Counted from the first letter of the stretch, positions 3,097 to 24,647 are shown. The stretch is DNA of 64,000 nt from Candidatus Latescibacterota bacterium (GCA_965221775.1 CBDCSU010000006.1:1920001-1984000); one strand, 5' to 3'. The notes: generated by a model from the letters alone, not told the origin. Numbers and translations are program-made.

Positions 3097-3294
3097 ATGC
3101 CGTTTTCGTTCAAGAACTCGAAGGGAACGTCCTACATCCTCCACCAGAAGACCACGACCCTGAAGAACGGGAACACGCAGAACATCTTCTTCTTCGCCAA
3201 GGAGGCCCGCGAAGGCGCCCTCGACGAGGTGCCCGAGGGCTACCAGGTCGCCGAGAGCCGCAACGGCCTTCCGGTGCTCAAGCGCTCCAGCTGA
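3097..3294 (+). CDS. Small (65 aa) hypothetical protein
   Basis: GAGGAG Shine-Dalgarno before ATG 3097, strongly biased codons, and a downstream terminator. Begins MPFSFKNSKGTSYILH. Confidence 0.8.
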   Translation: MPFSFKNSKGTSYILHQKTTTLKNGNTQNIFFFAKEAREGALDEVPEGYQVAESRNGLPVLKRSS

Positions 3295-3325
3295 GTCTCT
3301 TCAGGAAGCAAGACCAGAGGTATCC

Positions 3326-3361
3326 AGGCGCCGGTGGGTTTCCGCCGGCGCCTTTCTCTTT
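3326..3361 (+). terminator. Rho-independent terminator
   Basis: AGGCGCCGGTGG-GTTT-CCGCCGGCGCCT stem followed by TTCTCTTT. Confidence 0.8.
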
Positions 3362-3410
3362 GCCGGGCCCAGCCGGCGGGCCTAGCCTTCGGCCCGCCCC
3401 CACCGGAGTG

Positions 3411-6743: not shown

Positions 6744-6864
6744 TCCTCTGCGCCGGGTTCACAGGACGCCGCCGGAGTTCATCGGCAAGGCTCTCCTGAC
6801 GTAAGACGCCGCATGCAGTCAAGCACCGGGAGCGTCCCGTGGTCACTCATCGTCTCCCGAAGCT

Positions 6865-7176
6865 TCATACAACCTCTTCCACCGTCGGCGCAGTCGCAGC
6901 CTGGTTCCGGCGGGCCTGCGCGAGTTCGTAGCTCGCCTGCATCCGCATCCAGTGCTCGGCGGTGCCCCAACCGATCTCTTCCAGCGCCAGCGCCATGTTC
7001 GCAGAGACCCCCGCCTTTCCGTTCAGCACGCGCGACAGGGTCCCGCGGTCGCAACCGAGGTGGACGGCCGTATCCGTGACGTTCCATCCGGTCTCTTCCA
7101 TGCTCTCACGGATCAGTTCGCCCAGATGCGGCGGGTTCAGCATGGGGCGTGCACGTCCGTCCCCGTCATTGTTCAT
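6865..7176 (-). CDS. higA: HigA-family (HTH-XRE) antitoxin
   Basis: NPPHLGELIRE...LSRVLNGKAGVSANMALAL...WMRMQASYEL, with AAGGAG SD before ATG 7176. Confidence 0.9.
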   Translation of the reverse strand: MNNDGDGRARPMLNPPHLGELIRESMEETGWNVTDTAVHLGCDRGTLSRVLNGKAGVSANMALALEEIGWGTAEHWMRMQASYELAQARRNQAATAPTVEEVV

Positions 7177-7196
7177 CAGTCGGCACTCCTTCCCGG

Positions 7197-7316
7197 TCAG
7201 TGATAGTCGATCAGGTCCACGTCCACGGCCTCGCCGTCCTCGAACCGGAACACCACGCGCCAGTTGCCGGACACACGCACGCTCCACTCGCCCGCCCGGT
7301 CGCCCTTCAGGTGTAG
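7197..7316 (-). pseudogene. higB: C-terminal remnant of HigB (RelE-family) toxin
   Basis: Not in the ORF track. Hand translation gives LHLKGDRAGEWSVRVSGNWRVVFRFEDGEAVDVDLIDYH*, with no start or N-terminal half. Confidence 0.88.
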
Positions 7317-7358
7317 CGTGCCGCGCCACGCGCCGCAAGAAGGTGCTGCGCTGAGCGC

Positions 7359-8665
7359 ATGAGGCGCCAGTGGCGGTGACCCTCGGCGTGGCCTGGATGG
7401 CCGGCTTCTACGGCCTCGCCGCCCTCGGCGTAGAGCCCGTAGCCACCTTCTTCTTCCTCTTCGCCTGGGCCGGCCTCCTCTTCACCTTCGACCAGCTCAT
7501 CGCCCGGGTCGAGGGCCGCTCTCTTGTCGCACGCCTCGGGGCTGGCTCCTTGGCACTGCTCATGGCGTGGTCCGCCGTGCTCTGGTTCGCCTTCGAGCTG
7601 GCCAACCTGCGGCTGCAGAACTGGCACTACGTGATGGTCACCGACGTGGACGCCGCGCGCCTGGCGGGGACGGTCCTGGCCTTCGGCACGGTGCTGCCGG
7701 GCGTGTTCTGGATCGATCACTGGCTCGGCGCACGAGGCGTCGCCGCGGCCCTGGGCCTCCGTCCCCTGCGCTTCGGTCCGCGGTCCCTGCTCGCGCTGCA
7801 GGCGGCAGGCGCCGTCAGCCTGGTGCTGTGCCTGCTCGATCCGACGCGCTTCTACCCGCTGATCTGGGGTGTCGCACCCCTGGTCCTCGCGCCGGTGGTC
7901 TACCGCCGCGGCGCTGACGGCTGGCTGCGCCAGTGGGAGGGCGGCGAGTACGGCCCCACCCTGCGCATGCTGCTGGCCGGCGCAATCGCCGGTGGATTCT
8001 GGGAGTTCTTCAACTACTGGGCCCGGGCCAAGTGGATCTACACCGTCCCCTTCTTCGACGAGCTCAAGCTCTTCGAGATGCCCTTGTTGGGATTCCTCGG
8101 CTTCCCGCCCTTCGCCCTGGGCTGCGCCACCGTGTATCGGCTGCTGGTCTGGCACCGGCTGGCGCCCCCCATCGGCTGCTTCGCTCAGCAGGGGCCCGCC
8201 GCAGGGAAGCTGGCGCGCCCGGCTGTGATCGCCGTGGCCGTGGTCGTCTCGGTGACCGGTTATCTCGCCGTCGACCGCGTGGTCGTCACCTCGCGCACGC
8301 CGAGGGTAGCCGATGCCGCGGCCATCGGTCCGGAGCAGCGGCAGGCCCTGAAGGCGGCCGGGGTGTCACACCTGACGCAGCTGACGGGCTGGAGAAGCGG
8401 ACGCCGCTGGGCCGAGGTCGAGGCGATGTTGGGTGATTCGAGCGCAGCGGATCTGCGTCGGGTGGTGGCGGTGTACTTGCATCAGGGGATCGGGACGGAG
8501 TACGGCAACCGCCTCGTGGCGGCGGGCGTCACCTCCCTGGAGAGCCTGCGTGGCTGGAGGGCCGGGGAGTTGTGGGAGAGGCTGCGAGTGGAGGACTCGC
8601 AGGGCAGGGTGCCGACGCGGGCGCAGGTGAAGGTGTGGGTGCGGCGGCTGCCAGAGGGTGGATGA
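7359..8665 (+). CDS. Multi-pass membrane protein with C-terminal DUF4332-like (helix-hairpin-helix) domain; start at GTG 7370, or at ATG 7359 with a 1-nt frameshift
   Basis: About 8 hydrophobic helices, a [17 protein letters not shown]...FEMPLLG motif, and a [17 protein letters not shown] HhH-like tail. Confidence 0.75.
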
Positions 8666-8724
8666 TTCCGGGATCCTCAGGCAAATTATCCGCCGCAGGT
8701 ACCCCAGCAGGGAGGAGTGAAGCT

Positions 8725-9015
8725 ATGCCGATGAAGAACCCGCCCCATCCAGGGCTCTCGGTGCGGCACGATTGCCTGGAGCCTTTGGGGCTGAATGTCA
8801 CGGAAGCGGCCAGGCACCTGAGCGTCAGCCGCGAGGAGCTTTCCGACATCGTGAACTGCAACGCGGGCATCTCGCCTGAGATGGCAATCCGGCTCCACAA
8901 GGCCTTCGGGGGCGGCGCCGAGACGTGGCTGCGCCTCCAGGCTGCCTACGACTTGGCGCGAGCGATGAAGCATGCCGATGAGATCAAGGTCGAACGGCTG
9001 TCACCAGGAGCCTGA
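8725..9015 (+). CDS. higA: HigA-family antitoxin, orphan
   Basis: [10 protein letters not shown]...[28 protein letters not shown], with GGAGG SD. No room for an upstream toxin gene. Confidence 0.9.
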
Positions 9016-9157
9016 TACCGTGGGGCGTACAAGTGGAAGACCAAGCTGCGGTACAGCGGAAGGTCGCAGCATCCAAAATCGCCACACGCCCTTGCCCGAA
9101 GCGGCTCTCGGCATACCATGGGTCGCCCCATGTACACATGGCCTTGTGGAGTCTAAG

Positions 9158-9574
9158 CTAGGTTGGGCGCGAGAGGAATCGCTCCAGCCTTCGGGCTACT
9201 ATATCGGGCCTCCTCTCCACGTCGCACTCCCAAAGCCTCAGGACCCTCCATCCCTGACGCCGTAGTCGGCGGATGTTCCGCTGGTCCCGGCGCTTGTTGT
9301 TCGAGAGCTTCTGCTCCCAGTACTCTCGACGTGTGGATGGAATGCGACCCTCTCCGCAATGAGGACACAGGTGCCAGAAACAACCGTGCACGAAAATGAT
9401 GGCGTTGTACTTCCTGAGAACGACATCTGGCCGTCCTGGAAGCGCCATCACGTTCAGACGGTAGCGATAGCCCATCTTCGTGAGGAGGCGCCGGACAATG
9501 CGCTCAGGCTTAGTGTCCTTGCCCCGGATGCGGGACATGACTTCGCTTCGCTTCTTGCTGCTCCAGATGTCCAT
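9158..9574 (-). CDS. vsr: Very-short-patch repair endonuclease Vsr
   Basis: RSEVMSRIRGKDTKPE, LPGRPD, FVHGCFWH and VLRLWEC. Confidence 0.95.
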   Translation of the reverse strand: MDIWSSKKRSEVMSRIRGKDTKPERIVRRLLTKMGYRYRLNVMALPGRPDVVLRKYNAIIFVHGCFWHLCPHCGEGRIPSTRREYWEQKLSNNKRRDQRNIRRLRRQGWRVLRLWECDVERRPDIVARRLERFLSRPT

Positions 9575-9575
9575 G

Positions 9576-10697
9576 CTATGGATGTGTGGACTGCTTGAGT
9601 ACTGGTTGTAGGAACTCCATGACGCTCTTGGCGACTTGGAAGGCCAGTGGTACCGGAACGCCATTAGAGACCATTGCGAACTTAGCCCCAAGGGGATAAT
9701 GGGGCTGGAGGGCATATTCATCCGGGATGCCCTGGATGCGCATAGCCTCCCTGACGCTTAGTCGACGTTCCTTCCAAGGGTGCAAGTGCACTTCGTTGTG
9801 ACCATAGCAGGCCGTAGGGCTGAAGCGGTAGCGGTGAAGGCGCTTGAAGGACTTGCGTTTGGTGTCACCCTCACTTACGGTCTTGAATCGTTCGGAGTAG
9901 GTATTGAAGACATCGTCTCTATTCTGAGTTGGCATTAGACGGAAGGCACTGGCGACGGTAAGTTCATAGGGAATGTCGTTGGGACGCAAGGGCCTCTCGC
10001 CGAACGGTGATACCTGGGGCCAGTTGAATCCTGTCTTGGCACCCTTGAAGTCTGGGAGTTCCGGCCAAGGGAACCAGTCCCTATCCGTCCTATCGATCAT
10101 GCGGCTAGCGCACTGTTTCGCTATGTGCTCATGAACGCCAACCAGAATTAGCCGTTCCCGGTCTTGGGGAACGCCCATTTCGAGGGCATTAATCATGCGC
10201 AGATCTAGGCAATAGCCAGCGGCCTGGAGCTGCTGTTCGAGCTTCTTCAAGTAAGCACGATGCACTCCTATGCGATACAGTCCCGCCACGTTCTCGAACA
10301 CGAAGAAGCGAGGCATGAGTGAAGTGATGCGGTAAACGTAAGTCCTTGTCAGCTTGCCCTTGGTGCCCTTGCTGCCCTGGTGGCGTCCACCGTTACTGAA
10401 GTCAGGACAGGGTGGTCCGCCGATCACGCCGAATAGAGAGGGCTTGCCTTGCGGGAAGGCTTGTCTCTCTATAGACGGGGCGTAGAGCGATCTGATGTCC
10501 CGAGTATTCGAAATAGCCGCTGGGTATGGCTTCTTGCCATTGGCTTTGCGCCATAGGGTCATGCCGTAGGCGTACATGCTCGCGACCGAAGGATCACTTT
10601 CGTTTGTCCAGACGGTCTCGAAACCTGCCTTCTCGAAGCCGATGTCGAGGAATCCGCCGCCGGTGAAGAAGGACAGGAGTGGGATGGCGTTACTCAT
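9576..10697 (-). CDS. dcm: DNA (cytosine-5) methyltransferase
   Basis: Motif I FFTGGG, motif IV GGPPCPDFS, motif VI ENV, motif VIII QDRER, motifs IX/X SVREAMRIQG...NGVP. Confidence 0.95.
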   Translation of the reverse strand: MSNAIPLLSFFTGGGFLDIGFEKAGFETVWTNESDPSVASMYAYGMTLWRKANGKKPYPAAISNTRDIRSLYAPSIERQAFPQGKPSLFGVIGGPPCPDFSNGGRHQGSKGTKGKLTRTYVYRITSLMPRFFVFENVAGLYRIGVHRAYLKKLEQQLQAAGYCLDLRMINALEMGVPQDRERLILVGVHEHIAKQCASRMIDRTDRDWFPWPELPDFKGAKTGFNWPQVSPFGERPLRPNDIPYELTVASAFRLMPTQNRDDVFNTYSERFKTVSEGDTKRKSFKRLHRYRFSPTACYGHNEVHLHPWKERRLSVREAMRIQGIPDEYALQPHYPLGAKFAMVSNGVPVPLAFQVAKSVMEFLQPVLKQSTHP

Positions 10698-10718
10698 GAG
10701 GTCTCGATAGCGGGATTG

Positions 10719-11801
10719 TCATTCCTCCAAAGCGAATCCTGTGGTCAGGTCAGTTTGTCTATACGAAGTCTCCACTACGTCACGCCGGAGGTCGCAGAGC
10801 ATTGCCGCCGATACGTCCTGCATCAGGAACGGAAAGCGCGTCGGGGAAAGCCCTCTGACCGTGACTTGGCGGGCGCCAATGTTGAGTGCGAGGAGTAGTG
10901 TGCCGTTGCCGAGCAGGGTGACGCTATTCACCGTCCCAACGGCATCGGCTGGCCAGCCGGGACTCTGTTCGCGTTTGCTCCAATATCCCTTGCACACTGG
11001 CCTGTACCCACAGAAGCGGCAAGCGTCGGGGCTAGGGGTGGCGAGGCGTTGGGGCGGTGCGCCTGATGCTATGAGGTTGTTAATCGCCGTGAGTTTGGTG
11101 CGGGCCTGCTCCATGATATTGCGTGCCCGGGCGGTGTCGAGCGGCACCTGGTGATTGCCGCCGGCAAGGTTGGTCAGCGTCAGCCGAATCGGCCACTCGC
11201 CGCAGGTTTCATGGTAGATGGCGGCGTAGAGGAGAAGTTGAGCCTCATATGCTGGCTTGACGATCCCCGCCTCACGCTCTGTTATGGCCCCGGTCTTGTA
11301 ATCAAGGAGTTCCACCCCCAGCTTGCCGGGAACGATGCGGTCGACGAAACCGCCCAAGAGTCCATCGTCGCTCTCCAGCCAGACCTCCACCCCTGCGGAC
11401 CGGCCAGCAGACACTCTCGTAGCGCCGCGAGGAGTGGACTTCCTTTGGGTGATCCTCCGGGCTGATGCAAGGGTGAGACGCTTCCTGACCTCATATCCTT
11501 GCGCGCTCTCGCTGAGGGGGATGAAGCGCCCCTCTCCAGCTTGGCGCATCTGGTCTTCCACCTCGGCTACGGAACTCTCCCAGGCTTTGCTCAGGCGTTG
11601 GCTCTGGAGCGATCCACGGCCCGCAAGTTCGAGGACTCGGTGAGAAACAAGGCCGAGTCGGGCGGCCGGAGAGACAGGGAGGATCGGGGGGGTGGTGGTG
11701 GCATGCCAGACTTCCCGGAGCACGCACTGACTGAGTTGATGATACCTGCTAGGAGAAATCCGTCGTAGTGGGTGTAAGTTGGGAGGATCCGGTAGCAGCA
11801 T
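10719..11801 (-). CDS. PD-(D/E)XK nuclease, RecB/Cas4-like, probable 4Fe-4S
   Basis: ISPS...C at the N-terminus, E...GFVDRI...DYKTG, QLLLYA, and CRFC.YRPVC. Confidence 0.88.
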   Translation of the reverse strand: MLLPDPPNLHPLRRISPSRYHQLSQCVLREVWHATTTPPILPVSPAARLGLVSHRVLELAGRGSLQSQRLSKAWESSVAEVEDQMRQAGEGRFIPLSESAQGYEVRKRLTLASARRITQRKSTPRGATRVSAGRSAGVEVWLESDDGLLGGFVDRIVPGKLGVELLDYKTGAITEREAGIVKPAYEAQLLLYAAIYHETCGEWPIRLTLTNLAGGNHQVPLDTARARNIMEQARTKLTAINNLIASGAPPQRLATPSPDACRFCGYRPVCKGYWSKREQSPGWPADAVGTVNSVTLLGNGTLLLALNIGARQVTVRGLSPTRFPFLMQDVSAAMLCDLRRDVVETSYRQTDLTTGFALEE

Positions 11802-11813
11802 GGGGTCAGAGAC

Positions 11814-14800
11814 TCACTCAACAGCCTTGGCGAGTAGGGATCGACAATACGCCGGTCTCCTGAGAAGGTTGAACGTGTCGATGTACCGGAAGACGTCGCC
11901 TCCTGCAGCCACAATGGCGTCGGCGAGTAGACCAGCGGGTCTCCGGGTGTCCCAGAGAGGGTGCACAACCAAAATGCGCCTCTGCCCGACCGTGAATCCA
12001 GGAACGTCAGCCCAGGTCTCCGGTTTGTAGTCGTTGAAGTGTGCGACAAGGCTGTCCCTGAGAATACCGGCACTGTCTGGCCATCCATGGAGTTCCGGGG
12101 CCTCGAAATCCCCGTCAAGGCCGACGCGGTAGTTTGGACACTGAAGGGTCTTGAGGTACGAGAGAGCTAGGCGCCAGTCGAGGAGACCGTGGTAGGTCAT
12201 GTTGCGATAGACCTTGAGGCAGTCGTAGCAGGCAGAATCGCAGGCGGCCCGATGTGCTGGCAAGAGGATCTTCTCTGCGTAGGAACCCCGGGCCGGACTG
12301 TGGATTGCGTGGAGGACTTCTGCAAGGCTCTCGTAGGCCTCCCGAACAAAGCCGGCGCCGTTGGGCAGGCGGTCACTGAGGATGATGTCGGCGACGGTCG
12401 TAGACTCATCTAGATTGTGTGAGGTGACACTGCCTACCTCGATCTCCTCAGGGTCGATGTCAAACCTGTCGGCCAACACGCGCTGGAGGAGGAAAGCAGC
12501 GGAGTATATTGCGGCCCTCAGTCCACTGTGGGCGGCAGCAGGGTCAAGGGTGATTCCTTTGGAAACGGCGGCCGGAGCGATGCGCAACACCTCGGTTGTC
12601 TTGGCGGCCGCGAGGGCGATCTTGTCCCGGCCGTCGCTGCCATACCGGGCGTCGATCCATTGATGTCCAAGCGGTGGAATGCCTCTACTCCTGCCACTGT
12701 CGGATGGCGGCGGGGGTGTCGTGACCACAGCGCCCCGGAAGAACTGTCCTGCATTGTCGTTTATTCTCCAGACTGTGCCCTGGGCGGAGAGGGCCCTGTT
12801 ACAGTTAGTGTCGGCGAGTTTGGTCCGGCCTGGTTCCTCAGTGGCCTCTACCATCGTGGCAGGGATGCTGAACATGAGGCTGTCGTCCTCTTTCGCATCA
12901 CTTCCCATGGTGAGGTTAGTCCGAAAGGCTTGCGGGACGACGATCTCGAATTGCCGATAGGACCCGTCTTCGTCGGCTGGGTGGCCACAGTGCGGGCAGT
13001 GCTCTCGCGGCTCCTGGTGAACCGTGGTCTTCATGTGTCCGCAGGCTCTGCACCATTGCACCCAGCGTCTGAAAGGAAGCGGCTCCTCGGAAAAGGGCAC
13101 CCACTTGGGGCCCTGCTGGTAAAGAGGTGGCGTGAATCCTATGGCGGTGTGAACTGCCTTATCCTTTGTCTTCTGAGCCCCGGGGGCGAACTCGGTGATG
13201 GCGAGCTCAAGGTCTCGATCGATGGTGCGCTCCCCGTCCTTGGTCAGGCGGTGGTAGAGAAGCCGGGTCCTGGAAGGCATGCCGAACATTGGGAGTATTG
13301 CGGCCTCCGCGAGGCGCTCAGCCAAACCCTCACCGACGAGCTCCGGATTGCTGTGAGTATCCTGTATCTGTTTGGGCAGAGTGTGCTCAAGCCACTGCAA
13401 GTCCTCCTCACTTGAATCGTGGAGGAGAGCTCGGATGACCGCGTCCTGTGCTTCCTTCTCACTCACAAGCCAAGTCTCTACGGAGTTGCGGTTCTCGGGC
13501 CAGCCGACCTTGGCGTCAGGATCGATGGCAAGCCCAAATTCTCCGTGAGTGTCGGGTGGCCGGGGGCTGTGCCACCATCTCACTCCGGCCGCCTTGAATG
13601 CACGGCGGAGGCACTCCTTGGCAAGAAGGCGTCTGGCTATCTGGGGTTGGGTCATCGTGAGGAAGGGAACCGGAGGGGGATCACCAATGATGCGTTCGGG
13701 TACTGAAAAGTAGTGCTCGTCGTGGCTGCGACCCCTACAGAGGGTGAGCACAAGTGCAAAGGCTTGGCCGCGTCGTCCCGCGCGACCTACCCTCTGCTGG
13801 TAATTGAACCTCATGGGCGGCATATTAGCGAGCAGGACGGACTGTAGGTGTCCAATATCGACCCCGACTTCCATCGTTGTTGTCACGCTAAGTGCATCAA
13901 TCTCGTCGACCTGTGGAAGGCGTGGCTTCCCGGGTAGGTCTACGATGATTCCGCGAAAGTGCTGCTGCCTCTCTATTTGGTTGTCGGTTTGCGCTGTCAG
14001 TTCCTCACAGTGAAGTCTGATTGGCGGCCGATGTTCTGCTGCGGCCTTGGCTAGGTGGTTCTCAGCCCATAGCTCACGACAGGTCCTCTGCGCAGTTTGG
14101 GGGAGCTTGGCATGGCATGCGGTGCAAATCCCACACGAGTGGTGGAGGTGGTATCGGGCACAGCGGGGACACTCCCAGACGGGGTCGTCTCCTTCCGTCA
14201 CCCGTACACTAAGCTCACGGGCTACGAGCACCCCATTGTGATGGCCACCCTGGCGCAAGGCGGCGAAGATAGCGTCTCCAAGGGTTGCTTCGTGCAATCC
14301 CCTATCCTTGGCGACCTGCCGGACGTAGCGCTTTATGCGCGCCTGACAGTCGACGTAGTCTGGGTAGGAGTCTTGGGGATATTCTGAGCCTTCATGCCGA
14401 AATCTGTCCCCGAGAATCCGGACGAAGGCATCGCAGGCCTCAACAAACTCCTGGGGTCTCAGTCCAGACGCTGCGCTGAGTTCCGAGAGTGCTACGGGAT
14501 CGGTGCGCAGCTTCATCCATCCGAGTCCTGACGCTTCAAGCCCGAAGTAGAGGCGACCAAAGAAGAGGTCGCAGAGCGTGACAGTAAGGGCGTGCAGGAT
14601 CCTCTCTCTAGCGTGATGCGCTCCTTGGGGCAAGCCCTGCCGCCAGGTGCGGACTTCAAAGTCAAAGAGGGTTGTCCAGTGGTGGTACTTTTCCCCCCAA
14701 AGGAAGTCCTGAAGGAGAAGGTCATTGCCTGCGGGGTTTACTCCATGTTCGACAAGTCTCCGGATAAGGATACCGCAATCCTGTAGATCGTCTGGTGGCG

Positions 14801-17501
14801 GCAAGACCACAGAAATGGGCACGATGCGGTCACGTCCGCTGGTTTTGGCGCGTGCAATCTGTGTGGTTGCCCTGTCAATCTCGTGGAGTATCGGCGGGGG
14901 CATACCTTCTCTGGGGAGTCCGGCCGTCCGGATGAGATTGCGGTACCGCTCAAGGTCGCCCGGGTGTCTGTCGATGTACTCCTTTGCGGCGGGTGGGAGG
15001 GGGAGGTCTTGCTCGAGGTGGTCGATTAGGGCAGGGACTCCGATGATGGCAGAGTGCAATTCATCGCATACGATCTCGCGGACGAGTTCGTGGTAGTGAT
15101 TGCGTTCCACGCCGTTGGAGATCTGCGCAGCATCCTCGCGGCTGTCGGAGAAGACGACCAACTTTCGCCTTGCTTCATCGCTTGCTTCTAGCTGATAGAA
15201 TAGTTCCTTGGTAAAGATCTGGCTGACTTTTGAGAAGCCCGTTCTAAAACCACGGACTGGAGACTTCCTGTTATCGCGCCGGCTATAGTCGGTGCTGCAC
15301 GCAGGGCATACGCAAGGGAGTGCCCTGTACTCTTCGTCAGTTCCGTCGGCATCTATCTGGAAGAGGTAGCCTTGTGCCCACTGCTGCGGGTGTCTCTGTG
15401 CATCCTCGTGTGTGGGCCTGACAGCGCCTGTGTAGGCGTTCATGCTGGCCTCCAGCCACCGGGCCGAGGGGGCTTTGCTCTGTTGGGCGTCTCCAAAGCG
15501 GGCCTGGCGCCAGCGTGGAGGCTTGTCATAGTCCTGAGTCCCTTGGGGCCAGAAAACGCCGAACTCCCGGTACGACCTTCGTTCAACAAACCTCGCGGGT
15601 TGTCTCTCCGGAATCCCTTCGATGTCCGGACTGGTGGCGAGAAACTCTAGTGCCCCTGGTGTGTGCAGCTTCTCCCCCCCGAAGAATACGGTCCCGCAGT
15701 GTTCACAGTACAGCAGTTGAAGAATGCGATATCCCTCCTTGGAGAGGATTCTGGTATGGGAATGGAGTTCCCCGACGGGCCTGCCGTCTCGAACTGAGGC
15801 CGAGGGCCTTATTGACGCCCAGAGGCCCTCAATGTTGCGGAAGAAATAGTGGATCCTAAAGGAGGGTATAGTCCGCTTCCGGTGATACCGCTCCATGAGA
15901 GAGCTGGCGATTAGCACGCCCCGGAGTGCGCGGCGAGCTGATAACAGGGGGTGGCCGGGAAAGAGGCGGGTAGCCAAGTCAGGGAGTGAGAGAGCCGTGA
16001 GTGCCCCATCTTTCATGGAGGCATGGAGGAGGTTCAAACTGGGATTGAGAGAGTCGACCGCACTGAAGAAGCCCTCAACTGAGGCCTCAGAGGACAACAT
16101 TCTTGCAGCCTCACTAATGGTAGCGTCAGTCACCTCGGGTGCGTTGGCGAGATGCTCGAAAGGAGCCAGTGGGAGAGTTGCCACCGGCATGGGGGAAGGC
16201 TTCAACTCGCCCTCGATAATGTCCACGGCCTTAGATCCAAAGAAGCCCTCCAAGAACTTCTGGCTCTCGGGATGGTGAGCCTGGAGGGATGCGCTGGAGG
16301 CTAGAATGCGTAGCTGGGGATGGTCGGGATAGAGGCCAAGCCGGAGAAGGAGAAGGCGAAGGAGGTAAGCCACTTCTGCCCCGGCTGTTCCCCTGTACAA
16401 GTGGAGTTCGTCCACAATGAGGTGGAATGTGCGCATACTCCTGGCCTGCTCTCGCTTGCCTTCAGGCAGGTCTTCAGCAGCGAGCCATGCTCGTGTCTTC
16501 TCGAAGATGGGCTCATCCGCCTCGCGCATCATCATGATGCTCAGCATAGAGAAGTTGGTGATGAGGATGTCTGGGGGGTGGTCTTGCATGTCCCATCTAC
16601 TTCTCATTTCGGCACCATGGAGACTTGGGAAGAAGTGGAGGACTTCCGACTCCTTGGGCTTCCTACAGACGTGCTGCCGAGCCGCTTCTGCGGCCACTTC
16701 CGCCTCTTGAAGCCGCTGGCAAAGCGCACGGAGCTTGTCGGTGTTGGGACTCCCTGTCTCGCGGTGTTCGTGGCCAGGTACCGGCGTGGAACTGTTATAC
16801 CTGCCCAAGTAGATGCGGTTCCCTGGGGATTGCACTCGAAACCAAGCGCGGGCTTGGTCTGAGTCGAGAGCTTTCCTCAGACGGGTAAGTTGGTCCTCGA
16901 CCAGCGCATTCATGGGATAGAGGATGAGAGCCCGGACAGCAGGGGTGCGCCTCTCATGCCCTCTCTGTGGAACACGGAAGGATCTGCGGAGCCTATTGCC
17001 GGTCTTACAGCGGTCCTGCCAGTCCAGACTCTTCCACCAATCACTGGTGTGGTCGTGCGGTTTGCTGGCCGAGGGCCATGTCGGAAGTTCCTTGACAAAG
17101 TGGGCAAAGAGAGGTAGCAGAAAGGCCTCGGTCTTTCCTGAGCCAGTGCCTGCGGTGACCACGCAGTGTCTTCCGGAGAGGGAGCGGGATAGCATGGTCG
17201 TCTGGTGGCGATGAAGCTCGTAATCACCCATAAGGCCACACTCTACGAGCGACTTGAAGAGGTGCCGCTGGTGATTGTCGAGGCCAGGGAGATCCTGGGC
17301 CTCAAGAGTTTGGATGGTCTTGCCATCAGTTTGGTACGAGGGAAGGGGCTCAAGCCAAGGTTCGTGGGTCAGCACACCAGGTGACCGAAGGAGTTGGTCG
17401 CGTTCCGCCTCGAGGCTTGGGAAGCGTGTTCCGAATGCGGTCTTTATGTACAAAATGAAGTTATCGCGGATCTTCTCGAAGGCAGCGATGGGGTCAATCA
17501 T
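11814..17501 (-). CDS. druE: Large SF2 DEAD/DEAH helicase with C-terminal DUF1998 (Druantia DruE-like)
   Basis: Q-motif LHRHQ, Walker A TAGTGSGKT, YPMNALVEDQ, DELH, SAS, TMEVGVDIG, QRVGRAGRR, several CxxC pairs, and a CDSACYDCL Zn motif. 1895 aa. The helicase-DUF1998 call is firm; the DruE label is by architecture. Confidence 0.8.
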   Translation of the reverse strand: MIDPIAAFEKIRDNFILYIKTAFGTRFPSLEAERDQLLRSPGVLTHEPWLEPLPSYQTDGKTIQTLEAQDLPGLDNHQRHLFKSLVECGLMGDYELHRHQTTMLSRSLSGRHCVVTAGTGSGKTEAFLLPLFAHFVKELPTWPSASKPHDHTSDWWKSLDWQDRCKTGNRLRRSFRVPQRGHERRTPAVRALILYPMNALVEDQLTRLRKALDSDQARAWFRVQSPGNRIYLGRYNSSTPVPGHEHRETGSPNTDKLRALCQRLQEAEVAAEAARQHVCRKPKESEVLHFFPSLHGAEMRSRWDMQDHPPDILITNFSMLSIMMMREADEPIFEKTRAWLAAEDLPEGKREQARSMRTFHLIVDELHLYRGTAGAEVAYLLRLLLLRLGLYPDHPQLRILASSASLQAHHPESQKFLEGFFGSKAVDIIEGELKPSPMPVATLPLAPFEHLANAPEVTDATISEAARMLSSEASVEGFFSAVDSLNPSLNLLHASMKDGALTALSLPDLATRLFPGHPLLSARRALRGVLIASSLMERYHRKRTIPSFRIHYFFRNIEGLWASIRPSASVRDGRPVGELHSHTRILSKEGYRILQLLYCEHCGTVFFGGEKLHTPGALEFLATSPDIEGIPERQPARFVERRSYREFGVFWPQGTQDYDKPPRWRQARFGDAQQSKAPSARWLEASMNAYTGAVRPTHEDAQRHPQQWAQGYLFQIDADGTDEEYRALPCVCPACSTDYSRRDNRKSPVRGFRTGFSKVSQIFTKELFYQLEASDEARRKLVVFSDSREDAAQISNGVERNHYHELVREIVCDELHSAIIGVPALIDHLEQDLPLPPAAKEYIDRHPGDLERYRNLIRTAGLPREGMPPPILHEIDRATTQIARAKTSGRDRIVPISVVLPPPDDLQDCGILIRRLVEHGVNPAGNDLLLQDFLWGEKYHHWTTLFDFEVRTWRQGLPQGAHHARERILHALTVTLCDLFFGRLYFGLEASGLGWMKLRTDPVALSELSAASGLRPQEFVEACDAFVRILGDRFRHEGSEYPQDSYPDYVDCQARIKRYVRQVAKDRGLHEATLGDAIFAALRQGGHHNGVLVARELSVRVTEGDDPVWECPRCARYHLHHSCGICTACHAKLPQTAQRTCRELWAENHLAKAAAEHRPPIRLHCEELTAQTDNQIERQQHFRGIIVDLPGKPRLPQVDEIDALSVTTTMEVGVDIGHLQSVLLANMPPMRFNYQQRVGRAGRRGQAFALVLTLCRGRSHDEHYFSVPERIIGDPPPVPFLTMTQPQIARRLLAKECLRRAFKAAGVRWWHSPRPPDTHGEFGLAIDPDAKVGWPENRNSVETWLVSEKEAQDAVIRALLHDSSEEDLQWLEHTLPKQIQDTHSNPELVGEGLAERLAEAAILPMFGMPSRTRLLYHRLTKDGERTIDRDLELAITEFAPGAQKTKDKAVHTAIGFTPPLYQQGPKWVPFSEEPLPFRRWVQWCRACGHMKTTVHQEPREHCPHCGHPADEDGSYRQFEIVVPQAFRTNLTMGSDAKEDDSLMFSIPATMVEATEEPGRTKLADTNCNRALSAQGTVWRINDNAGQFFRGAVVTTPPPPSDSGRSRGIPPLGHQWIDARYGSDGRDKIALAAAKTTEVLRIAPAAVSKGITLDPAAAHSGLRAAIYSAAFLLQRVLADRFDIDPEEIEVGSVTSHNLDESTTVADIILSDRLPNGAGFVREAYESLAEVLHAIHSPARGSYAEKILLPAHRAACDSACYDCLKVYRNMTYHGLLDWRLALSYLKTLQCPNYRVGLDGDFEAPELHGWPDSAGILRDSLVAHFNDYKPETWADVPGFTVGQRRILVVHPLWDTRRPAGLLADAIVAAGGDVFRYIDTFNLLRRPAYCRSLLAKAVE

Positions 17502-18110
17502 GCGCTCTCCTCACTGTTCACGACCTCGTGCAGATGGACAGGTGCCACTCTTTGGTGGAGCTTGGCAGCGATCATCTCTGAAATCACGGAAGGAACATCC
17601 CGGTAGAGGGTGATCGGGTGCCCTGCGGGTATCGATGCGACCGAGGCTTGTGTTCTTGCAAGAGCGGGAGGCATGCCAGTTGAGAGGGCTGCTGCCCGGG
17701 CAAGAAGGACTGGGAGTGGGGTGGTAGCAGGCACGGCAAGGGTTCGCAATTGGGCGTCGTACAGGAGCACTGTCCGCTCTTGCTCTGCAAGGAGGAGATA
17801 TCGTCCCCAGTCGCGATTGACCTCCGTTGCGGCGGTGTCTTTCCAGAGCCAATGCCGACGTTGCTTGGTGATAGGATTGCGGTACTCTGTGAGCCGGAGG
17901 GAAGGATCAGTGTGTGCCGTTGCTCCGATGAACTTGAGTAGGCCCCCATGGAAGACCCGGAGCGGCCAATTGGGCTCCTGCCGCGGCTCGAAGGAAAGGG
18001 TGCTGGTCACTTGAGGGAGGGTTAGGGAGAGGTGGGCGAGCTTCCAGCCAGCGGGGTGGTCGAGCTCGCATTGAAGCGCGGCTGTCTGCCCGATGGTCGC
18101 TAGTGCTCTG

Positions 18111-19171
18111 TTAAAGAGTGGGCATTGAGTTTTGGACCTTCACCAGCTCCGCATCCGCCTTGTTCCGACATCGCCAGGCGAGGTACTCCTGCATGCGTTG
18201 GCCCACGTCCCGATGGTCCTCCGGGTCGCTGTTCTTGATGACGAAGTAGTGGGCGGCCGTCAGATGGCATTCGAGCCGATTCATCCAGGAGGCGTTGGTG
18301 GCGGTGAAGACGAGGTCGACCTGATGGCGCTGACACCACTGCCGGATCGGTTCGGTCGTGTGCGTCGACAGATTGTCGAGGACGAGGTAGATCCGTCGGG
18401 CCTTGGCGTAACGGCGCCGGATAGCCTTGAGGAAGGTGAGCACCTCCGAGGCGTGCTTCTTGCGCTTGTGATGCATCCACAACTCGTCCTCGTGGACGTT
18501 GTAGGCGCCGAAGAAGTAGCTGACCCCGGCGTGCCGATGGTAGGTGGCCCGATGGCGCACCGGGCGCTTCTGCGGCGCCCACGAGGAGCCGGCATGGGGC
18601 TTGATCTGCACCGGCCCCATCTCGTCGAAGCAGACTACGACCGAGTCCTTCGGCGCCCGCCGGTAGAGTCGGTCGATTCGTTTTTTTTAGCGGCGAAGTC
18701 CGGATCCTTCGACTCCTTCCAGGTACGAGTCCGCTGGTAGGTGACCTTATGCCGGTCCAGGACCTTGGCGATGGTCACGTGCGAGACCTTGGGGATCATC
18801 TGCCGCCCCACCAGATGGTCCGTCAGCTTGCGCAGCGACCACTGGTTGAAGGGTTGGCCGAAGGCCCGAGGGGGCATGGTGGCGATCTCCACCACCACGG
18901 ACTCGTCTTCCGGGGTCAACGCCGGGGGGCGCCCCGGATGGGCTCGCGTGCGAAGCGACGCCAACCCTTCCTCGTTGTATTGGCGCAGCAGTTGGCGCAC
19001 GTACTCCTCGTGCAGGTGCAGCGTCGTCGACAGCTCCTGCACGCGCATCCCCTGAGCGCTGAGGGAGATCAACTGTCCTCGCCGCATCTGCACCGCATTG
19101 CGAGGCCGCTTCAGCCACCGGCTCAGTTCCTTGGATTCCGCGGCGTTCGGGGCTCGAGCATGGAGACACAT
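18111..19171 (-). CDS. IS630 transposase (two ORFs joined by -1 frameshift at A8, 18681-18688)
   Basis: ORF1 is the HTH part, ending WKESKDPDFAAKK. The -1 frame continues RIDRLYRR..VVCFDEMGP..VLDNLSTH..WMNRLE (DDE triad). The stop lies within the IR. Confidence 0.92.
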
Positions 19172-19207
19172 GGCGGACCCTCCCAGGCAAAATGGCCATA
19201 GGTCCCT

Positions 19208-19236
19208 ATGATACAACGACTTACGGAAAAGTACAA
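19208..19236 (-). promoter_or_regulatory. Sigma70-like promoter inside IS630 left end
   Basis: TTGTAC-17 nt-TATCAT on the minus strand. Confidence 0.65.
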
Positions 19237-19664
19237 GTCTGAATCCTTAACGGAGCACTAGCGTGCCCTTGTCCACTGCCTCAACGGCAATGCGAGGAGG
19301 CAAGTCGATGCCTGCAATACTCTGAGGATCCTGGTTGAGGCGAGCTAGGGGGCCGACTTGGAGCACTGCCCTTTGAAGGCTCTTTGACGTTTCCGGCACT
19401 CGTGCACCCGTTAACAGGGCCCGCGGTGTGCCTACTCCAGGAAGTAGGACCAGAGTGGGAGGACACATGTGCACCAAGGCACGAGGATAGTCGAATTCGC
19501 AGAAGCCAAGGGCTTCGAAGCACCGCATTACTTGTTGACGCAAATCAATGGTACCCCAGCGGTGGGTGTGTAAGTGAAGTGAGGCTGAACTGCAGACCAT
19601 TCTCAGGATGTTGTTGAACCGCTCGAGGCGGACAGAGGGTGCAGTGCTTATTGCGGAGAGCAGC

Positions 19665-21719
19665 TCAGCGGACACTCTTGGCCACCTCTACATATTCATA
19701 CCATCTGGTACGGAGTTCTCTGAGCTGCGGGGGTGACGTGCGCTTGCGAGCGTGCCAGAGAGCGGTTCTCCACTGCCTGACCAAGGCCTTGTCCTTGTCC
19801 TGCTTAGGCCTTGTCTGCCTGTAGGGGCGCCGCGCCTGCTCGGGGGAGCCGCAGAATACGGCTTTGAGTTGTTTGCGGCCGTCCTTGACAATCGCCCATA
19901 CGGGCATCCACGCGGGCAAGTGATCGTCTGGCCAAACGGCGATCTCGCCGGGGACTGGCCCGATTAGCGTGACGTGTGCAGAAAGATGTAATGGAAGATC
20001 CTGGGGGTACTCGGGGGGACCAGCACCTTGTGGAAAGTGGACGACAGCGCCGTTGGCGTACGGGAGGCAATCCGGGGTTGGCGTACCGGCGGAGTCACGG
20101 CGAAAGGGAGTATAATCGTGTCGTAGGGGGAGATGTGGGCTTTCCAGCCTGATGACTCTGCGAAGAGTCTGATGTTCTGTGCGAGCTTCTATACGTAGGG
20201 GCATCCCTTCCGGCAGGTCATCCTGTATCCGCCAGGTGTGGCTGAGCTCCTCGTCGTGTGCGAGTTCTTGTTTGTCTATGGTGACCGTTTCGTCCCCTAA
20301 CGCGTTCTCAAGGACTATGTGGGGAGGAGCGGTCTTGAGGTACACGTTTCCGCGTCCTGTCTTGATACCGCCCCTTAGGAGTAGCCTGACAGTGGTAGAT
20401 ACTGTGAGAACGTCTACCTCTGGGCATGAGTGGCGAGCGTTCTCGCCCTGATAGAGTGACCAACCGGGAGGTAGACCGTGGGAGGTACTATGTCGCCTGA
20501 AATTGTCGGAGTAGTCCTGTCCCCACTGAGAGACCCTGTCTATGTCCGCGCCTCTGGTCGCGATCAGGAACGGGGTGTTCCGCTGGAGGCGCTGCGTCTC
20601 AACATAGTCTGGAAGGCCGTCGTACTCACCAGGCATGAAGAGTTTGGTTGTAGCTGGGCGTAGCGTAGCAATCCACCCGTTTTCCTCGTCTTGCAGTTGT
20701 TCGCCATTTAGCCAATCGAGGACCGCGCCGTCAAGTTCGTGTGAAGTGACGGATTCGTAGAGCTTCTTAGACCACCCGCCAAGGAGATCTTCGCATGTCC
20801 ACTGGGATTCATCTGGGCTGCGGACGAAGCCGCACCCGTCTGCGGGGAAGGAGGCAGGTGTCCGGATCCGCACCCGGCAGGTAACGCGCTGAGCTAGAGG
20901 ATCATGCTGCAAGCAAAGACGGAGTGCGGCGGTCTTCCTTCGACGCTGAGACCCTGCATCGTCTTCTACGATAGTTCCATCCCAAGCCTCAAGCTCTTCA
21001 AGGACCACCTCAGAGAGAGCATCACGGAGGACATTGCTCTCGGGGTCCCTGGCATCAAGGAGTCGCAGGGTACGTCGATGGAGAAGAGCTCCTCCGTCCT
21101 CTCGCAGGAGACGGAGTATGACTTCCTGGGAAGGGAGATCTAGAGGATCCAGTTTGCGCTCGCTGAGCAAGAGTGGGAGGCGCTTGCGCTCATCTTCTGA
21201 GATGAGGGTTTGGGAGAGGGGCAGGCCGATTCGCCACCACTGTCCGCGGAAGCGGGCGACGAAGCGTCCCAAAGTCTCGTGGTTCTCCTCTCTACTCCAG
21301 TGTTCAAGATCGTCCCAGAGATCGATCATTCGATCGAAAGAGGACGGGGCGCGGGTGTCTCCAGGATGTCCAAGGAGATCGTTTAGCCGGGGGTAGTATG
21401 CGTGAGGGGCATAGTCGCCCTCTATGCCTCCCGCAAGCACGTAAAGGCCGAGATAAGCGATGTATGGAGGGTAGGAAAGGTCTCGATCTCTCCACCCTTC
21501 GAAGGCCTCTAACGCCCTTTGACAGATGCCTGACCGTGTCGTCCAGGGAGGGCCGGCCTTCACTGCGTCGACGAATTCGGCCAACCCGGCGCCGAAGGGT
21601 CCACCTAGTTCCTCGATTAAGGGCTCGTTCACATAGAGCAGGACTTCCTTGGCAGCCTTCTCTTCGGTGAAGAAATGGCTAGCGAGTAGGTCGTTCCATT
21701 GGAGGTAACTGAGCGGCAC
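19665..21719 (-). CDS. 684-aa hypothetical protein, first gene of the Druantia-like operon
   Basis: Long ORF with GGAGG SD that overlaps the next gene. No catalytic motif recognised. Confidence 0.85.
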   Translation of the reverse strand: MPLSYLQWNDLLASHFFTEEKAAKEVLLYVNEPLIEELGGPFGAGLAEFVDAVKAGPPWTTRSGICQRALEAFEGWRDRDLSYPPYIAYLGLYVLAGGIEGDYAPHAYYPRLNDLLGHPGDTRAPSSFDRMIDLWDDLEHWSREENHETLGRFVARFRGQWWRIGLPLSQTLISEDERKRLPLLLSERKLDPLDLPSQEVILRLLREDGGALLHRRTLRLLDARDPESNVLRDALSEVVLEELEAWDGTIVEDDAGSQRRRKTAALRLCLQHDPLAQRVTCRVRIRTPASFPADGCGFVRSPDESQWTCEDLLGGWSKKLYESVTSHELDGAVLDWLNGEQLQDEENGWIATLRPATTKLFMPGEYDGLPDYVETQRLQRNTPFLIATRGADIDRVSQWGQDYSDNFRRHSTSHGLPPGWSLYQGENARHSCPEVDVLTVSTTVRLLLRGGIKTGRGNVYLKTAPPHIVLENALGDETVTIDKQELAHDEELSHTWRIQDDLPEGMPLRIEARTEHQTLRRVIRLESPHLPLRHDYTPFRRDSAGTPTPDCLPYANGAVVHFPQGAGPPEYPQDLPLHLSAHVTLIGPVPGEIAVWPDDHLPAWMPVWAIVKDGRKQLKAVFCGSPEQARRPYRQTRPKQDKDKALVRQWRTALWHARKRTSPPQLRELRTRWYEYVEVAKSVR

Positions 21720-21861
21720 CCTATCCTCCGGGCCGTACGAGCATTAGTCTCAAACGATTGCCTAGGTAGGGATCTGAAAAGCGATCGGTCAAGGCAGGGG
21801 CATGGGAGATGGGCTTGGCGCGATCAGGAGGATAGCTGGGAGAGCCGCGCAGCCTTGTCCC

Positions 21862-22950
21862 TCACCCGTAGATCCCCCTCAACCGCTGCGCCGCCTCCGC
21901 CTGGTACTGCAGCTTCCGGTAGACTTCGTCCAGATCCACCCGTGCCGCGGACCCCGGGGCGAAGCCGCAGTCGGGGTTGAGGACGATGCGCTCGGCGCCG
22001 ATCACCTCGACGGCCTGCTCGACGCGGTCGACGATCTGGGCGGCGTCGTCGATCTCGCCGGGGTGGACGCTGACGCAGCCGAGGCCGATCTCCAGGTGGT
22101 CGGGCAACTGCTCCAGGACCTCCACGGCGCCGGCGCCGGGGTTGGTGAACTCCAGGGTCAGGTGGTCGGTGTCGAGCTGCTCCAAGGCGGGGACGATGGC
22201 GGCGTAGTCGCCGCTGTGGTAGGCCTCGCCGCGGACGCGGGCGCCGGCGCGGCGGCAGAGGTGCACGGCGCGCACGGCCTCGCCGGCGATGCCCACGAGG
22301 ACCTCGTTGTCCATGTCCACGGAGAAGGCGGCCTCCTCGTCGGCGCCCCAGTCGTCGTCGTCGTAGTGGGCCCGGACCTCGGGATCGACGAGGAGGCACA
22401 GGTGCGGATCGTCCACCTGCACGATGTCGGCGCCGGCCTCCACCACAAGTTCGGCCTCGCGCTGCAGGATCGGGGCCACGGCCTCGGCGAAGGAGCGGGG
22501 GGTGCCGTAGGCATCGGTGGACAGGTCCGCGTCCCACATGCGTTCGGCCAGGAGGGCCGGCGACGGCAGGGCGACCTTGATCAGGCGGTCGGTCAGCGAG
22601 CGGAGGTGTTTGACCTCGGCGGCTATCACCCCCTGGTCGCGGACGGCCACGTCCCCGGCGACCACGGTCCAGGGTCGTCCGTCCTCGGTCTGGCTCACCT
22701 CGAAGCCGTCCGCCAGCTCGGCGATGATGCCGATGTAGGAGGCCCGCCGCCACTCGCCGTCGGAGATCACGTCGAGGCCGGCCGCCTCCTGCACCGAGAC
22801 GGCGTAGGCCACGCCGGCGTCGAGGCGGCGCTGCCAGCCCTTGTCCCGGCGGCCGTCGACGACGATCTCGCGCACGTATCCCGGCCTGGGCAGGGAACCG
22901 ACCACAGACGTGGGAAAGAGGGTGCCGCAGCGCTCCACGAGGGACGGCAT
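21862..22950 (-). CDS. Cobalamin-independent methionine synthase II family (MetE C-terminal-like) protein
   Basis: TSVVGSLPRP, DVISDGEWRR, and Zn ligands HLCR, LE and NPDCGF. Confidence 0.88.
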   Translation of the reverse strand: MPSLVERCGTLFPTSVVGSLPRPGYVREIVVDGRRDKGWQRRLDAGVAYAVSVQEAAGLDVISDGEWRRASYIGIIAELADGFEVSQTEDGRPWTVVAGDVAVRDQGVIAAEVKHLRSLTDRLIKVALPSPALLAERMWDADLSTDAYGTPRSFAEAVAPILQREAELVVEAGADIVQVDDPHLCLLVDPEVRAHYDDDDWGADEEAAFSVDMDNEVLVGIAGEAVRAVHLCRRAGARVRGEAYHSGDYAAIVPALEQLDTDHLTLEFTNPGAGAVEVLEQLPDHLEIGLGCVSVHPGEIDDAAQIVDRVEQAVEVIGAERIVLNPDCGFAPGSAARVDLDEVYRKLQYQAEAAQRLRGIYG

Positions 22951-23789: not shown

Positions 23790-24647
23790 TCATGGGGCGC
23801 GTTCCGCCGCCGCGGTCCGCTCGGCCGCCTTCAGACTGGCTTGCACCCGGTCGATGGGCAGGTCCTGGCGCCGTCGGTGGAGAAACATGCTGACATGGCT
23901 GTATCCGGCCCCTTGGAGCAGGCCGAGGGCGTCGATGTGACCGTCGCCGACCCGGTGGGGGTCGTGGGCGTCCGCGCCGATGACCACCGGAATGCGGCGC
24001 CCCGCCATCTCCGCCAACATGGCCGGTCCCGGGTGCATCTCGGCATAAGCCTTGTTGCGGCCCGAGGTGTTCAGCTCCATGGCCACACCGGTGGCGGCGA
24101 TGCGGTCGAGACAGGGGAGGATATGGTCCATGGCCTGCTCCGGGCGCCAGTGCGACGGGGCGAAATTCTTGACCAGGTCGGGATGGGCGATGGTGTCGAA
24201 CAGGCCGGTCTCGGCGGCCCGGGCCAGATGCTCGAAATAGGTGCCGATATAGGCGTCCACATCCCCCTCGTAGAAGCGGTGGAGGTATTGAGGAAGGTGG
24301 GGATGGACCGAACCGAGCACGTGGTGGAATGCGGCCATGCCGTGCAGCTTCTCCAGCCAGGGCTCCATGCCGGGCACGTAATCGCTCTCCATACCAAGGC
24401 GGACATCGACCTGGCCGGCCCAGGCTTTGCGGGCGCGCTCGACCATGGCCACGTAGTCGTCCAGTTCGTCCACGCCCATCCGCGTCTCCGGCGACCAGCC
24501 GTCGTCCGTGGGGTTGTGGTCGGTGACCACGATCCCCTTCAGACCCCGATGCAGGGCCACTTCGGCATACTCTTCCGGTTCGCCGCGTGCGTGTTTGCAG
24601 AGCGGGGTGTGCATGTGCATTTCGTACAGCATCGGCTCAAGTGCCAT
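23790..24647 (-). CDS. PHP-family histidinol-phosphatase (HisJ/HisK-like)
   Basis: HMHTPLCKHA, TDH, GSVH, AHPDL, ELNTSG and GADAH. Confidence 0.88.
   Translation of the reverse strand: MALEPMLYEMHMHTPLCKHARGEPEEYAEVALHRGLKGIVVTDHNPTDDGWSPETRMGVDELDDYVAMVERARKAWAGQVDVRLGMESDYVPGMEPWLEKLHGMAAFHHVLGSVHPHLPQYLHRFYEGDVDAYIGTYFEHLARAAETGLFDTIAHPDLVKNFAPSHWRPEQAMDHILPCLDRIAATGVAMELNTSGRNKAYAEMHPGPAMLAEMAGRRIPVVIGADAHDPHRVGDGHIDALGLLQGAGYSHVSMFLHRRRQDLPIDRVQASLKAAERTAAAERAP

Follow-up and report, generated by a model that had tools for sequence, protein, structure and literature searches.

The Druantia defence systems share a signature helicase of ~2000 amino acids (aa), DruE, which carries DUF1998/MZB. 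Type II, as summarised in PMC8565338 from Doron et al. (2018), consists of DruM-DruF-DruG-DruE; type IV, as printed by Payne et al. (2021, PMC8565338), consists of DruE, DruF and DruL without DruM and DruG, and is given there as 168 instances in RefSeq v201 from 11 phyla. A 2026 preprint (10.64898/2026.05.13.724313) recognises four DruE clades, I to IV, attributes 18% of 566 loci to type IV, and describes type III DruE as loading at junctions between single-stranded DNA and duplex and translocating 3'-5'. According to 10.64898/2026.05.12.722862, type III DruE has its own phospholipase D-type (PLD) nuclease and does without methylation, and types I and II carry methyltransferase modules. Bell et al. 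(PMC12458937) report that the DruE proteins of types I and II end in an inactivated Vsr-like nuclease domain, and that the wider YprA/MrfA helicase family has a basal branch that acts in repair with an exonuclease partner. In the literature searched, no mechanism has been published for types II and IV; only type III and, in part, type I have been worked out.

Here we analyse a stretch of 64,000 nucleotides (nt) from Candidatus Latescibacterota bacterium (GCA_965221775.1 CBDCSU010000006.1:1920001-1984000), hereafter the window, in which six co-oriented genes occupy positions 9158-21719 of the minus strand. They encode DruF, DruL, DruE, a PD-(D/E)XK nuclease (DruK), a DruM-type C5 cytosine DNA methyltransferase and a Vsr endonuclease, in that order. 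We consider it probable that this locus was acquired horizontally and is a Druantia system with a type IV core of DruF, DruL and DruE, joined by a recurring accessory module of DruK, a DruM-lineage methylase and Vsr. It is of a kind that has already been catalogued computationally and is uncharacterised experimentally.

The identity of the core is carried by the profiles of PADLOC-DB v2.0.0, which were used for all PADLOC comparisons. The druE gene (11814-17501, minus strand, 1895 aa) encodes a YprA/MrfA-like superfamily 2 (SF2) helicase with Zn-binding modules and the MZB/DUF1998 region expected of the signature protein. It matches DruE2 at 1833.6 bits and DruE4 at 1804.9 bits, both with E 0 and over the full length; the DruE3 profiles match it in pieces alone (1.2e-89 over six stretches). 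Pfam recognises DEAD, Helicase_C and MZB in the protein, and its Walker A motif (G118-T124), D364-E-L-H367, motif VI (Q1235-R1243) and cysteine pairs and quartets are invariant in 17 homologues. DruF (druF, 19665-21719, minus strand, 684 aa) matches DruF4 (PDLC00054) over residues 3-683 with E 3.5e-200, the profile having 678 positions, and DruF2 (PDLC00021) with 3.3e-190. DruL, which is encoded in two pieces, matches DruL4 (PDLC00056) at profile positions 1-135 of 330 (E 5.6e-26) and 168-326 of 330 (E 2.2e-46). Because these type IV matches agree with the definition of Payne et al., the core is of a described kind: all three proteins match type IV profiles near full length, DruF and DruL stand with DruE, and their order is F-L-E.

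PADLOC and Pfam thus bore out the original prediction of a Druantia-family operon. For the two genes that it had left unnamed, it had offered a DruF/G-like pair or a split DruH. The first proposal held for DruF, and the second gene turned out to be DruL, not DruG; no DruG profile was matched by the seven window proteins (E <=0.01) or by the intact DruL or fused F-L relatives (E <=0.1), DruG profiles being assumed to be present in PADLOC-DB. A split DruH is rejected, as no window protein matched a DruH profile in PADLOC.

Why is druL in two pieces? Its 5' part, codons 1 to ~138, lies at 19261-19675 (open reading frame, ORF, 19247-19675), and its 3' part of ~200 codons at 17498-18100 (ORF 17498-18010), both on the minus strand. 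Between them stands an insertion sequence (IS) of 1156 bp (18103-19258, minus strand), whose two transposase ORFs (18635-19216 and 18111-18620) carry HTH_32/HTH_29 and DDE_3 domains. Terminal inverted repeats at 18098-18117 and 19244-19263 are complementary at 18 of 20 positions, and a TA is duplicated at 18101-18102 and 19259-19260 within a CTAG target, which we take to be the rule for the IS630 family. The element belongs to that family. Once the IS and one TA (1158 nt together) are removed, the two halves fall into one frame of 1020 nt, which encodes 339 aa without stops and aligns from end to end with intact DruL homologues, the 5' piece covering their N-terminal half; the IS-free gene of 339 aa envisaged at the outset is thereby confirmed. 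Identity is 39% over 337 aa to the DruL of relative L001 and 47% over 335 aa to that of the same-class genome G023. Since the reconstructed frame has no stops and aligns full-length with intact homologues, the insertion looks recent. Four copies of the element occur in the host genome; three share 100% identity and the fourth stands at 97%. In public sequencing runs, the contigs of the best holder end at the ends of the IS, and no contig bridges 18100 to 19261; one marine metagenome run contains near-identical short pieces of druE, druL and druF, and two other runs contain the IS alone. With druL interrupted by an IS630-family element that has been active recently, the restriction arm of the system is probably off, whatever the fate of the genes downstream, and this copy of the operon is probably inactive now.

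The IS630-family element itself is widespread and active in the lineage. An element of 87% identity occurs in at least 10 copies in the same-family genome G016, and fragments were found in the sponge and marine metagenome runs X5, X6 and X9.

Downstream of druE lie the three accessory genes. DruK (druK, 10719-11801, minus strand, 360 aa) matches the PADLOC DruK profile (PDLC00060, 'PD-(D/E)XK nuclease superfamily') at 1e-26, Cas4 at 1.4e-08 and Pfam PDDEXK_1 at 6.6e-20. Residues C26, C261, C264, C270, E139, D154, D167, K169, Q188 and Y192 are invariant in a set of 35 and in a set of 24 sequences. They supply D...D/ExK, QxxxY and one N-terminal plus three C-terminal cysteines, which is the residue pattern of Cas4/AddB-type Fe-S nucleases, and the four cysteines are predicted to bind an Fe-S cluster. 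The methylase (9576-10697, minus strand, 373 aa) matches DruM2 (PDLC00030) at 1.1e-124 over profile positions 4-366 of 380 and Pfam DNA_methylase at 4.9e-44; FxGxG, PC, ENV and QxRxR motifs are present in its translation. A weak local match to the DISARM methylase DrmMII (4.3e-32) was also seen. Vsr, the very-short-patch-repair T:G mismatch endonuclease (vsr, 9158-9574, minus strand, 138 aa), is recognised by Pfam (2.8e-29) and by the PADLOC Vsr profile (7.8e-32), and shares D50 and a FxHGCFWH block with its homologues. Its ORF spans 9158-9721; alignment with 11 Vsr homologues places the true start at the ATG at 9574. The methylase with its PC and ENV motifs and the adjoining PF03852 endonuclease form a pair of the Dcm-Vsr type, whose activity is predicted from sequence. 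They are the sole PF00145 and the sole PF03852 match in the 5.36-Mb host genome.

The genes are tightly packed. DruF and druL overlap by 11 nt and druL and druE by 4 nt; the gaps that follow measure 12 nt (druE/druK), 21 nt (druK/methylase) and 1 nt (methylase/vsr). Since the genes are only 1-21 nt apart, we regard them as a single operon. The original prediction of six co-oriented, closely spaced genes in DNA of lower G+C content (GC) is confirmed, with GC 0.56-0.62 in the operon versus 0.69-0.72 in the flanks; taken gene by gene, operon GC is 0.556-0.616, compared with 0.72 in the neighbouring MetE-like gene and 0.719 in window bases 1-5000. At third codon positions (GC3), the operon has 0.63-0.73, and the adjacent host genes 0.95 (MetE-like) and 0.84 (AddA-like). 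This difference in GC3 supports a foreign origin of the operon. A scan of the operon ends gave no sigma-70-like promoter and one weak terminator-like site (9057-9045). The 64-kb window contains no tRNA genes, and no direct repeats of >=11 nt border the island.

The site of insertion points to foreign DNA as well. A DNA search of 20 relatives followed by local tblastn showed that the interval between a MetE-like gene (21862-22950) and a membrane-protein gene (7370-8665) is variable in the genus. In one same-genus genome, G006 (L085), it is empty, the two bordering genes lying ~300 bp apart; in G012 (L087) it holds a type IIG restriction-modification (R-M) enzyme (2.6e-297) and a TIR-like protein, in G007 (L086) a PLD-like protein, and in G011 (L088) other DNA. 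The dru operon was found, at the DNA level, in none of the nine same-genus genomes searched. The interval 8700-21860 is thus a variable defence hotspot in the genus.

A second copy of the system exists within the class. Genome G023 has the same six genes, with identities of 62-69% for DruE, 49% for DruK, 65% for DruM and 73% for Vsr. Its druE is broken near residue 410, and identical 466-aa transposase genes (DUF772 + DDE_Tnp_1) stand at both break points; the halves lie ~220 kb apart in inverted orientation (L089, C2:3342000-3361900; L090, C2:3568000-3587900), which looks like an IS-mediated inversion. Both dru copies found in this class are therefore IS-damaged.

Do the nuclease, the methylase and Vsr belong with the helicase? 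More than 5335 proteins related to DruE were found at E <=1e-20 among 8000 candidates scored. A scan of one genome per species confirmed 571 stretches; the 80 best loci among them (DruE identity 36-59%) were kept and surveyed with tblastn and with hidden Markov models (HMMs) built from the first-round matches. Two subsets with sufficient flanking sequence were used for counting: 70 loci with >=1.2 kb downstream of DruE, and 55 loci with >=3.5 kb downstream and >=2 kb upstream. DruF and DruL are each present in 77 of the 80 loci. DruK follows DruE directly in 36 of 70, and three more loci have partial copies at contig ends. In the 55-locus subset, the commonest module is DruK with a methylase (22 loci), followed by a methylase only (11), none of the three (10), all three (9), a methylase with Vsr (2) and DruK with Vsr (1, L071). 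A C5 methylase is thus found by HMM in 44 loci and by tblastn in a 45th, the same L071; 39 of the 55 loci have it next to dru. Vsr is found in 12. The order F-L-E-K-M-Vsr, M standing for the methylase, recurs on one strand in seven loci (L001, L004, L041, L047, L068, L071 and L075), spanning Omnitrophica, Smithella, Bacteroidota and Fischerbacteria, and the window DruE is nearest to that of L001, which has the same layout, in a FastTree phylogeny of 77 DruE sequences (L032 and L071, with no ORF overlapping the DruE range by >3 kb, and L035 and L061, with a DruE ORF of <1700 aa, are omitted).

The background density of C5 methylases is low: PF00145 has 7 matches in the 18.7 Mb of five relatives' genomes, ~0.4 per Mb, and in each genome one of them stands beside dru. 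Thirty methylases are >=39% identical to that of the window and form the DruM lineage; of these, 29 are encoded downstream and in the same orientation. In 23 other loci, the methylase belongs to other C5 lineages and takes varied positions. The pattern suggests a single functional slot that interchangeable methylases can occupy. As the nuclease, the methylase and Vsr co-occur with DruE relatives across phyla, the linkage to the helicase claimed in the original prediction is upheld, and the comparative record argues that their juxtaposition is beyond chance.

Some relatives depart from this layout. At L009 and L050 (Moorellaceae / Moorella thermoacetica), druK comes after the gene of a DruE relative of 48% identity, and a C5 methylase is close by; the 9.3 kb and 3.6 kb of upstream sequence, respectively, showed neither DruF nor DruL, and a different partner set may replace F-L there. 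At L071 (Candidatus Fischerbacteria, 6479-11998), DruE matches in pieces, and DruL and DruM are found by tblastn without clean ORFs; the copy may be decaying, or the assembly may contain frameshifts or gaps.

How does the locus compare with its described relatives? It resembles type IV in its three core proteins, and cores of the window type are spread across phyla, as PMC8565338 reports for type IV. It differs in that the window and most relatives have a C5 methylase, often DruK and sometimes Vsr, and in that the window druL is split. The resemblance to type II is also close: the DruE2 score of the helicase slightly exceeds its DruE4 score, and there are DruF2 and DruM2 matches. Unlike in the usual gene order of type II, however, DruL takes the place of DruG, and the methylase stands at the 3' end, after the nuclease. 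The near-equal scores for the two types, together with long DruF2 profiles (1011 and 1030 positions) that span DruF and a DruL-like C-terminus, suggest that types II and IV may form a continuum. With type III, the window has the signature DruE helicase in common; it lacks DruH, has a methylase, and encodes its nuclease as a separate, Cas4-like protein. DISARM likewise unites in one operon a helicase/DUF1998 of the YprA family, a DNA methylase (DrmMI/DrmMII) and a nuclease, and DruE has weak local matches to DrmA (3.4e-09, in the helicase C-domain). In the window, by contrast, helicase and DUF1998 are in one protein and the nuclease is a PD-(D/E)XK enzyme with cysteine ligands rather than a PLD enzyme (DrmC); no window protein has a PADLOC match to DrmB, DrmC or DrmE, which sets the locus apart from DISARM. 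The last two genes of the window operon, a C5 methylase gene and, after a 1-nt gap, vsr, both unique in the genome, resemble the dcm-vsr pair of E. coli. Dcm-Vsr pairs also stand alone, as in E. coli, whereas the window pair sits at the 3' end of a defence operon.

In 22 of the 80 loci, mostly from Bacteroidota and including one cyanobacterium, DruF and DruL are fused into one ORF of ~950-1008 aa. Because they are fused in so many relatives, we infer by the Rosetta-stone argument that they act together and would form one functional unit. The AlphaFold 2 model of DruF (mean predicted local distance difference test, pLDDT, 84.8) shows an N-terminal helical domain followed by beta-rich domains. 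Fold comparison matched only residues 442-530, to an Ig-like sandwich (Z 8.3, root-mean-square deviation, rmsd, 2.6, 84 residues aligned; VIA-align wide, a range common for this tool). DruL residues 1-70 are winged-helix-like (Z 6.8, rmsd 2.5, 63 aligned), a weak match again in the tool's common range, as is the ferredoxin/ACT-like match of residues 70-150 (Z ~6.5). Neither protein has a Pfam match; no enzymatic domain or fold was recognised in DruF by Pfam or by fold comparison, which barely covered the N-terminal helical domain. Profile searches against PDB sequences gave a best E of 0.23 for DruF and no match for DruL, and Foldseek against PDB gave no match with a sensible TM-score for either.

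In the ESM Atlas, DruF (19668-21719) lies near actinobacterial clusters at 0.91-0.93 and, at 0.88-0.89, below the 0.9 line, near clusters of YjiT_N (PF27201; 'STY4851/ECs_5259 family'). This is a hint that DruF and the E. coli YjiT family share an N-terminal domain.

In the original prediction, the two unnamed proteins would sense foreign DNA and the helicase would feed it to the nuclease; these roles stay conjectural, and DruE-DruK docking alone gained model support. DruK folded with DruE 1256-1895 reached a score of 0.75, and the best of three controls 0.00. That mark is reached by 58 of 80 solved complexes and by 2 of 110 mismatched pairs, counts that apply only approximately here because the DruE-DruK co-fold was run with our own alignments. 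At least 91% of contacts are in common between runs, and the partner pLDDT is >=83. Predicted contacts join the C-terminal extension of DruK (295-351) and its residues 98-112 to the Zn-ribbon of DruE (1487-1514) and to its last domain (1853-1869); the contacting stretches are DruK 98-112, 295-303, 314-322 and 341-351 and DruE 1501-1508 and 1853-1869. The model supports a docking of DruK on the DruE C-terminus. Such a docking of a separate, active nuclease would make sense if DruE ended in an inactivated Vsr-like domain. A profile comparison of the last 260 residues of the window DruE with Vsr gave a probability of 0.6%, which neither confirms nor rejects the published domain.

Taken together, these features suggest a system that may work as a helicase-nuclease of the R-M type, as the original prediction proposed; this is the most economical reading of the operon, now with comparative support. 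DruM would mark host DNA with 5-methylcytosine (m5C), and Vsr would repair the T:G mismatches that arise from m5C deamination, as in the dcm-vsr pair of E. coli. DruE, by analogy with MrfA, DISARM DrmAB and type III DruE, would be a 3'-5' SF2 translocase that loads on unmodified invading or replicating DNA. DruK, docked on the Zn-ribbon and C-terminal domain of DruE, would degrade that DNA. DruF and DruL would serve as a sensing, regulating or licensing unit, the winged-helix-like start of DruL being a weak match. For the mechanism as a whole, which is drawn by analogy, we judge the chances to be evenly balanced.

Several observations weigh against this picture, both as a classification and as a mechanism. 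The printed definition of type IV excludes DruM, and the window has a DruM2 match within the operon; relatives L003 and L019 likewise have a methylase that matches DruM2 in the same operon. Across 53 loci, methylase identity does not track DruE identity (Spearman -0.19, p 0.17). No methylase lies within 10 kb in 10 of 55 loci, and 34 of 70 are without DruK, so that the F-L-E core can exist without the module. The co-fold score expresses model confidence and is no measurement. At the predicted DruE interface, mean pairwise identity is 0.345 in DruK-bearing loci (n=39) versus 0.368 in DruK-less loci (n=33); the positions that differ between the groups, G1506, 1853 (R/K vs D/E) and A1860, could reflect phylogeny. 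No fold or family search assigns DruF or DruL a function, the literature searched holds no type IV experiment, and every step of the mechanism rests on analogy.

Could the operon then be two independent neighbours, a type IV system (F-L-E, perhaps with K) beside an unrelated, solitary Dcm-Vsr pair or what is left of a type II R-M system, brought together by defence-island clustering only? Type IV was defined without a methylase (Payne et al., PMC8565338, as printed), the site is a hotspot that gathers defence genes, and the methylase-free loci and the 23 loci whose methylase comes from another lineage and lies upstream or in the opposite orientation fit such an origin. Solitary Dcm-Vsr pairs are known, as in E. 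coli. We nevertheless hold this explanation to be unlikely, given that the 1-21 nt spacing is that of a single operon, the K-M-Vsr order after DruE recurs in seven loci from several phyla, and all but one of the DruM-lineage methylases lie downstream on the same strand, against the low background of C5 methylases noted above; nor is there a cognate restriction endonuclease gene in the operon.

The opposite view, of a genuinely new Druantia subtype that no described model covers, was the claim of the original prediction. It can draw on the literature searched, where 'DruK' is never joined with 'Druantia', where neither Vsr nor a Cas4-like nuclease is described in types II or IV (supplementary tables lay outside that search), and where type IV is printed without DruM (PMC8565338). 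The claim fell on the test set for it beforehand, a match to described systems: five of the six proteins match Dru-named PADLOC profiles over near full length. PADLOC-DB v2.0.0 holds DruK, DruF4, DruL4, DruE4 and DruM2 profiles that the window proteins match near end to end, and the architecture is common among relatives, which together make a new subtype improbable. Still further from the evidence is a role in DNA repair instead of defence, with the operon as a module like MrfA/MrfB (YprA-exonuclease). DruE does belong to the YprA/MrfA helicases, of which a basal branch works with an exonuclease in repair (PMC12458937), and Vsr is a repair enzyme. A repair function is nonetheless very improbable for a DruE whose E 0 matches are to the Druantia profiles and not to the small MrfA form, in an operon that includes a methylase, that sits as foreign DNA in a variable hotspot (empty in one same-genus genome, with the operon in none of nine), and whose dispensability shows in the IS damage that it has taken both here and in G023.

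Two further genes lie close to the island. A HigA-family antitoxin gene (8725-9015, plus strand; TIGR02607, E 1.1e-29) converges with vsr, and in three genomes a HigA-family gene is conserved at one border of the site. Where the original prediction had noted a toxin-antitoxin cluster beside the operon, this single antitoxin gene was found; no toxin, HigB-like or other, was detected among ORFs of >=45 aa in 8100-9300. The gene may be an orphan antitoxin or a regulator at the island border. Three kb from the island, in DNA of host GC, a gene at 24637-28119 (minus strand, 1160 aa) encodes an AddA/UvrD-like helicase-nuclease (TIGR02785, 2.6e-90, below cut-off). It is probably a housekeeping recombination gene outside the system.

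What does the Druantia reading of this locus mean for the family? With the window copy broken, its direct value is that of a comparative data point and of an example of how a large defence system in a variable hotspot is inactivated by an IS. The locus and its relatives do make several points testable: despite what the printed definition says, about four fifths of type IV cores carry a methylase; specific DruE residues are predicted as the docking site of DruK; and DruF and DruL are expected to act as one unit. The IS630 insertion, with excision at its CTAG site, might also serve as a reversible off/on switch for the system, an idea that we find less likely than the one that follows. Tentatively, we propose that the K-M-Vsr form may represent the type II/IV lineage in its ancestral or complete state, a methylation-gated helicase-nuclease in which a free Cas4-like Fe-S nuclease is docked on the Zn-ribbon and the degenerate C-terminal domain of DruE, a DruM of variable lineage provides the self mark, and DruF-DruL, fused or split, licenses loading. 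If so, 'type IV without methylase' would be an artefact of definition, and the two IS-broken copies in this class would be a hint that hosts pay a price for the intact machine.

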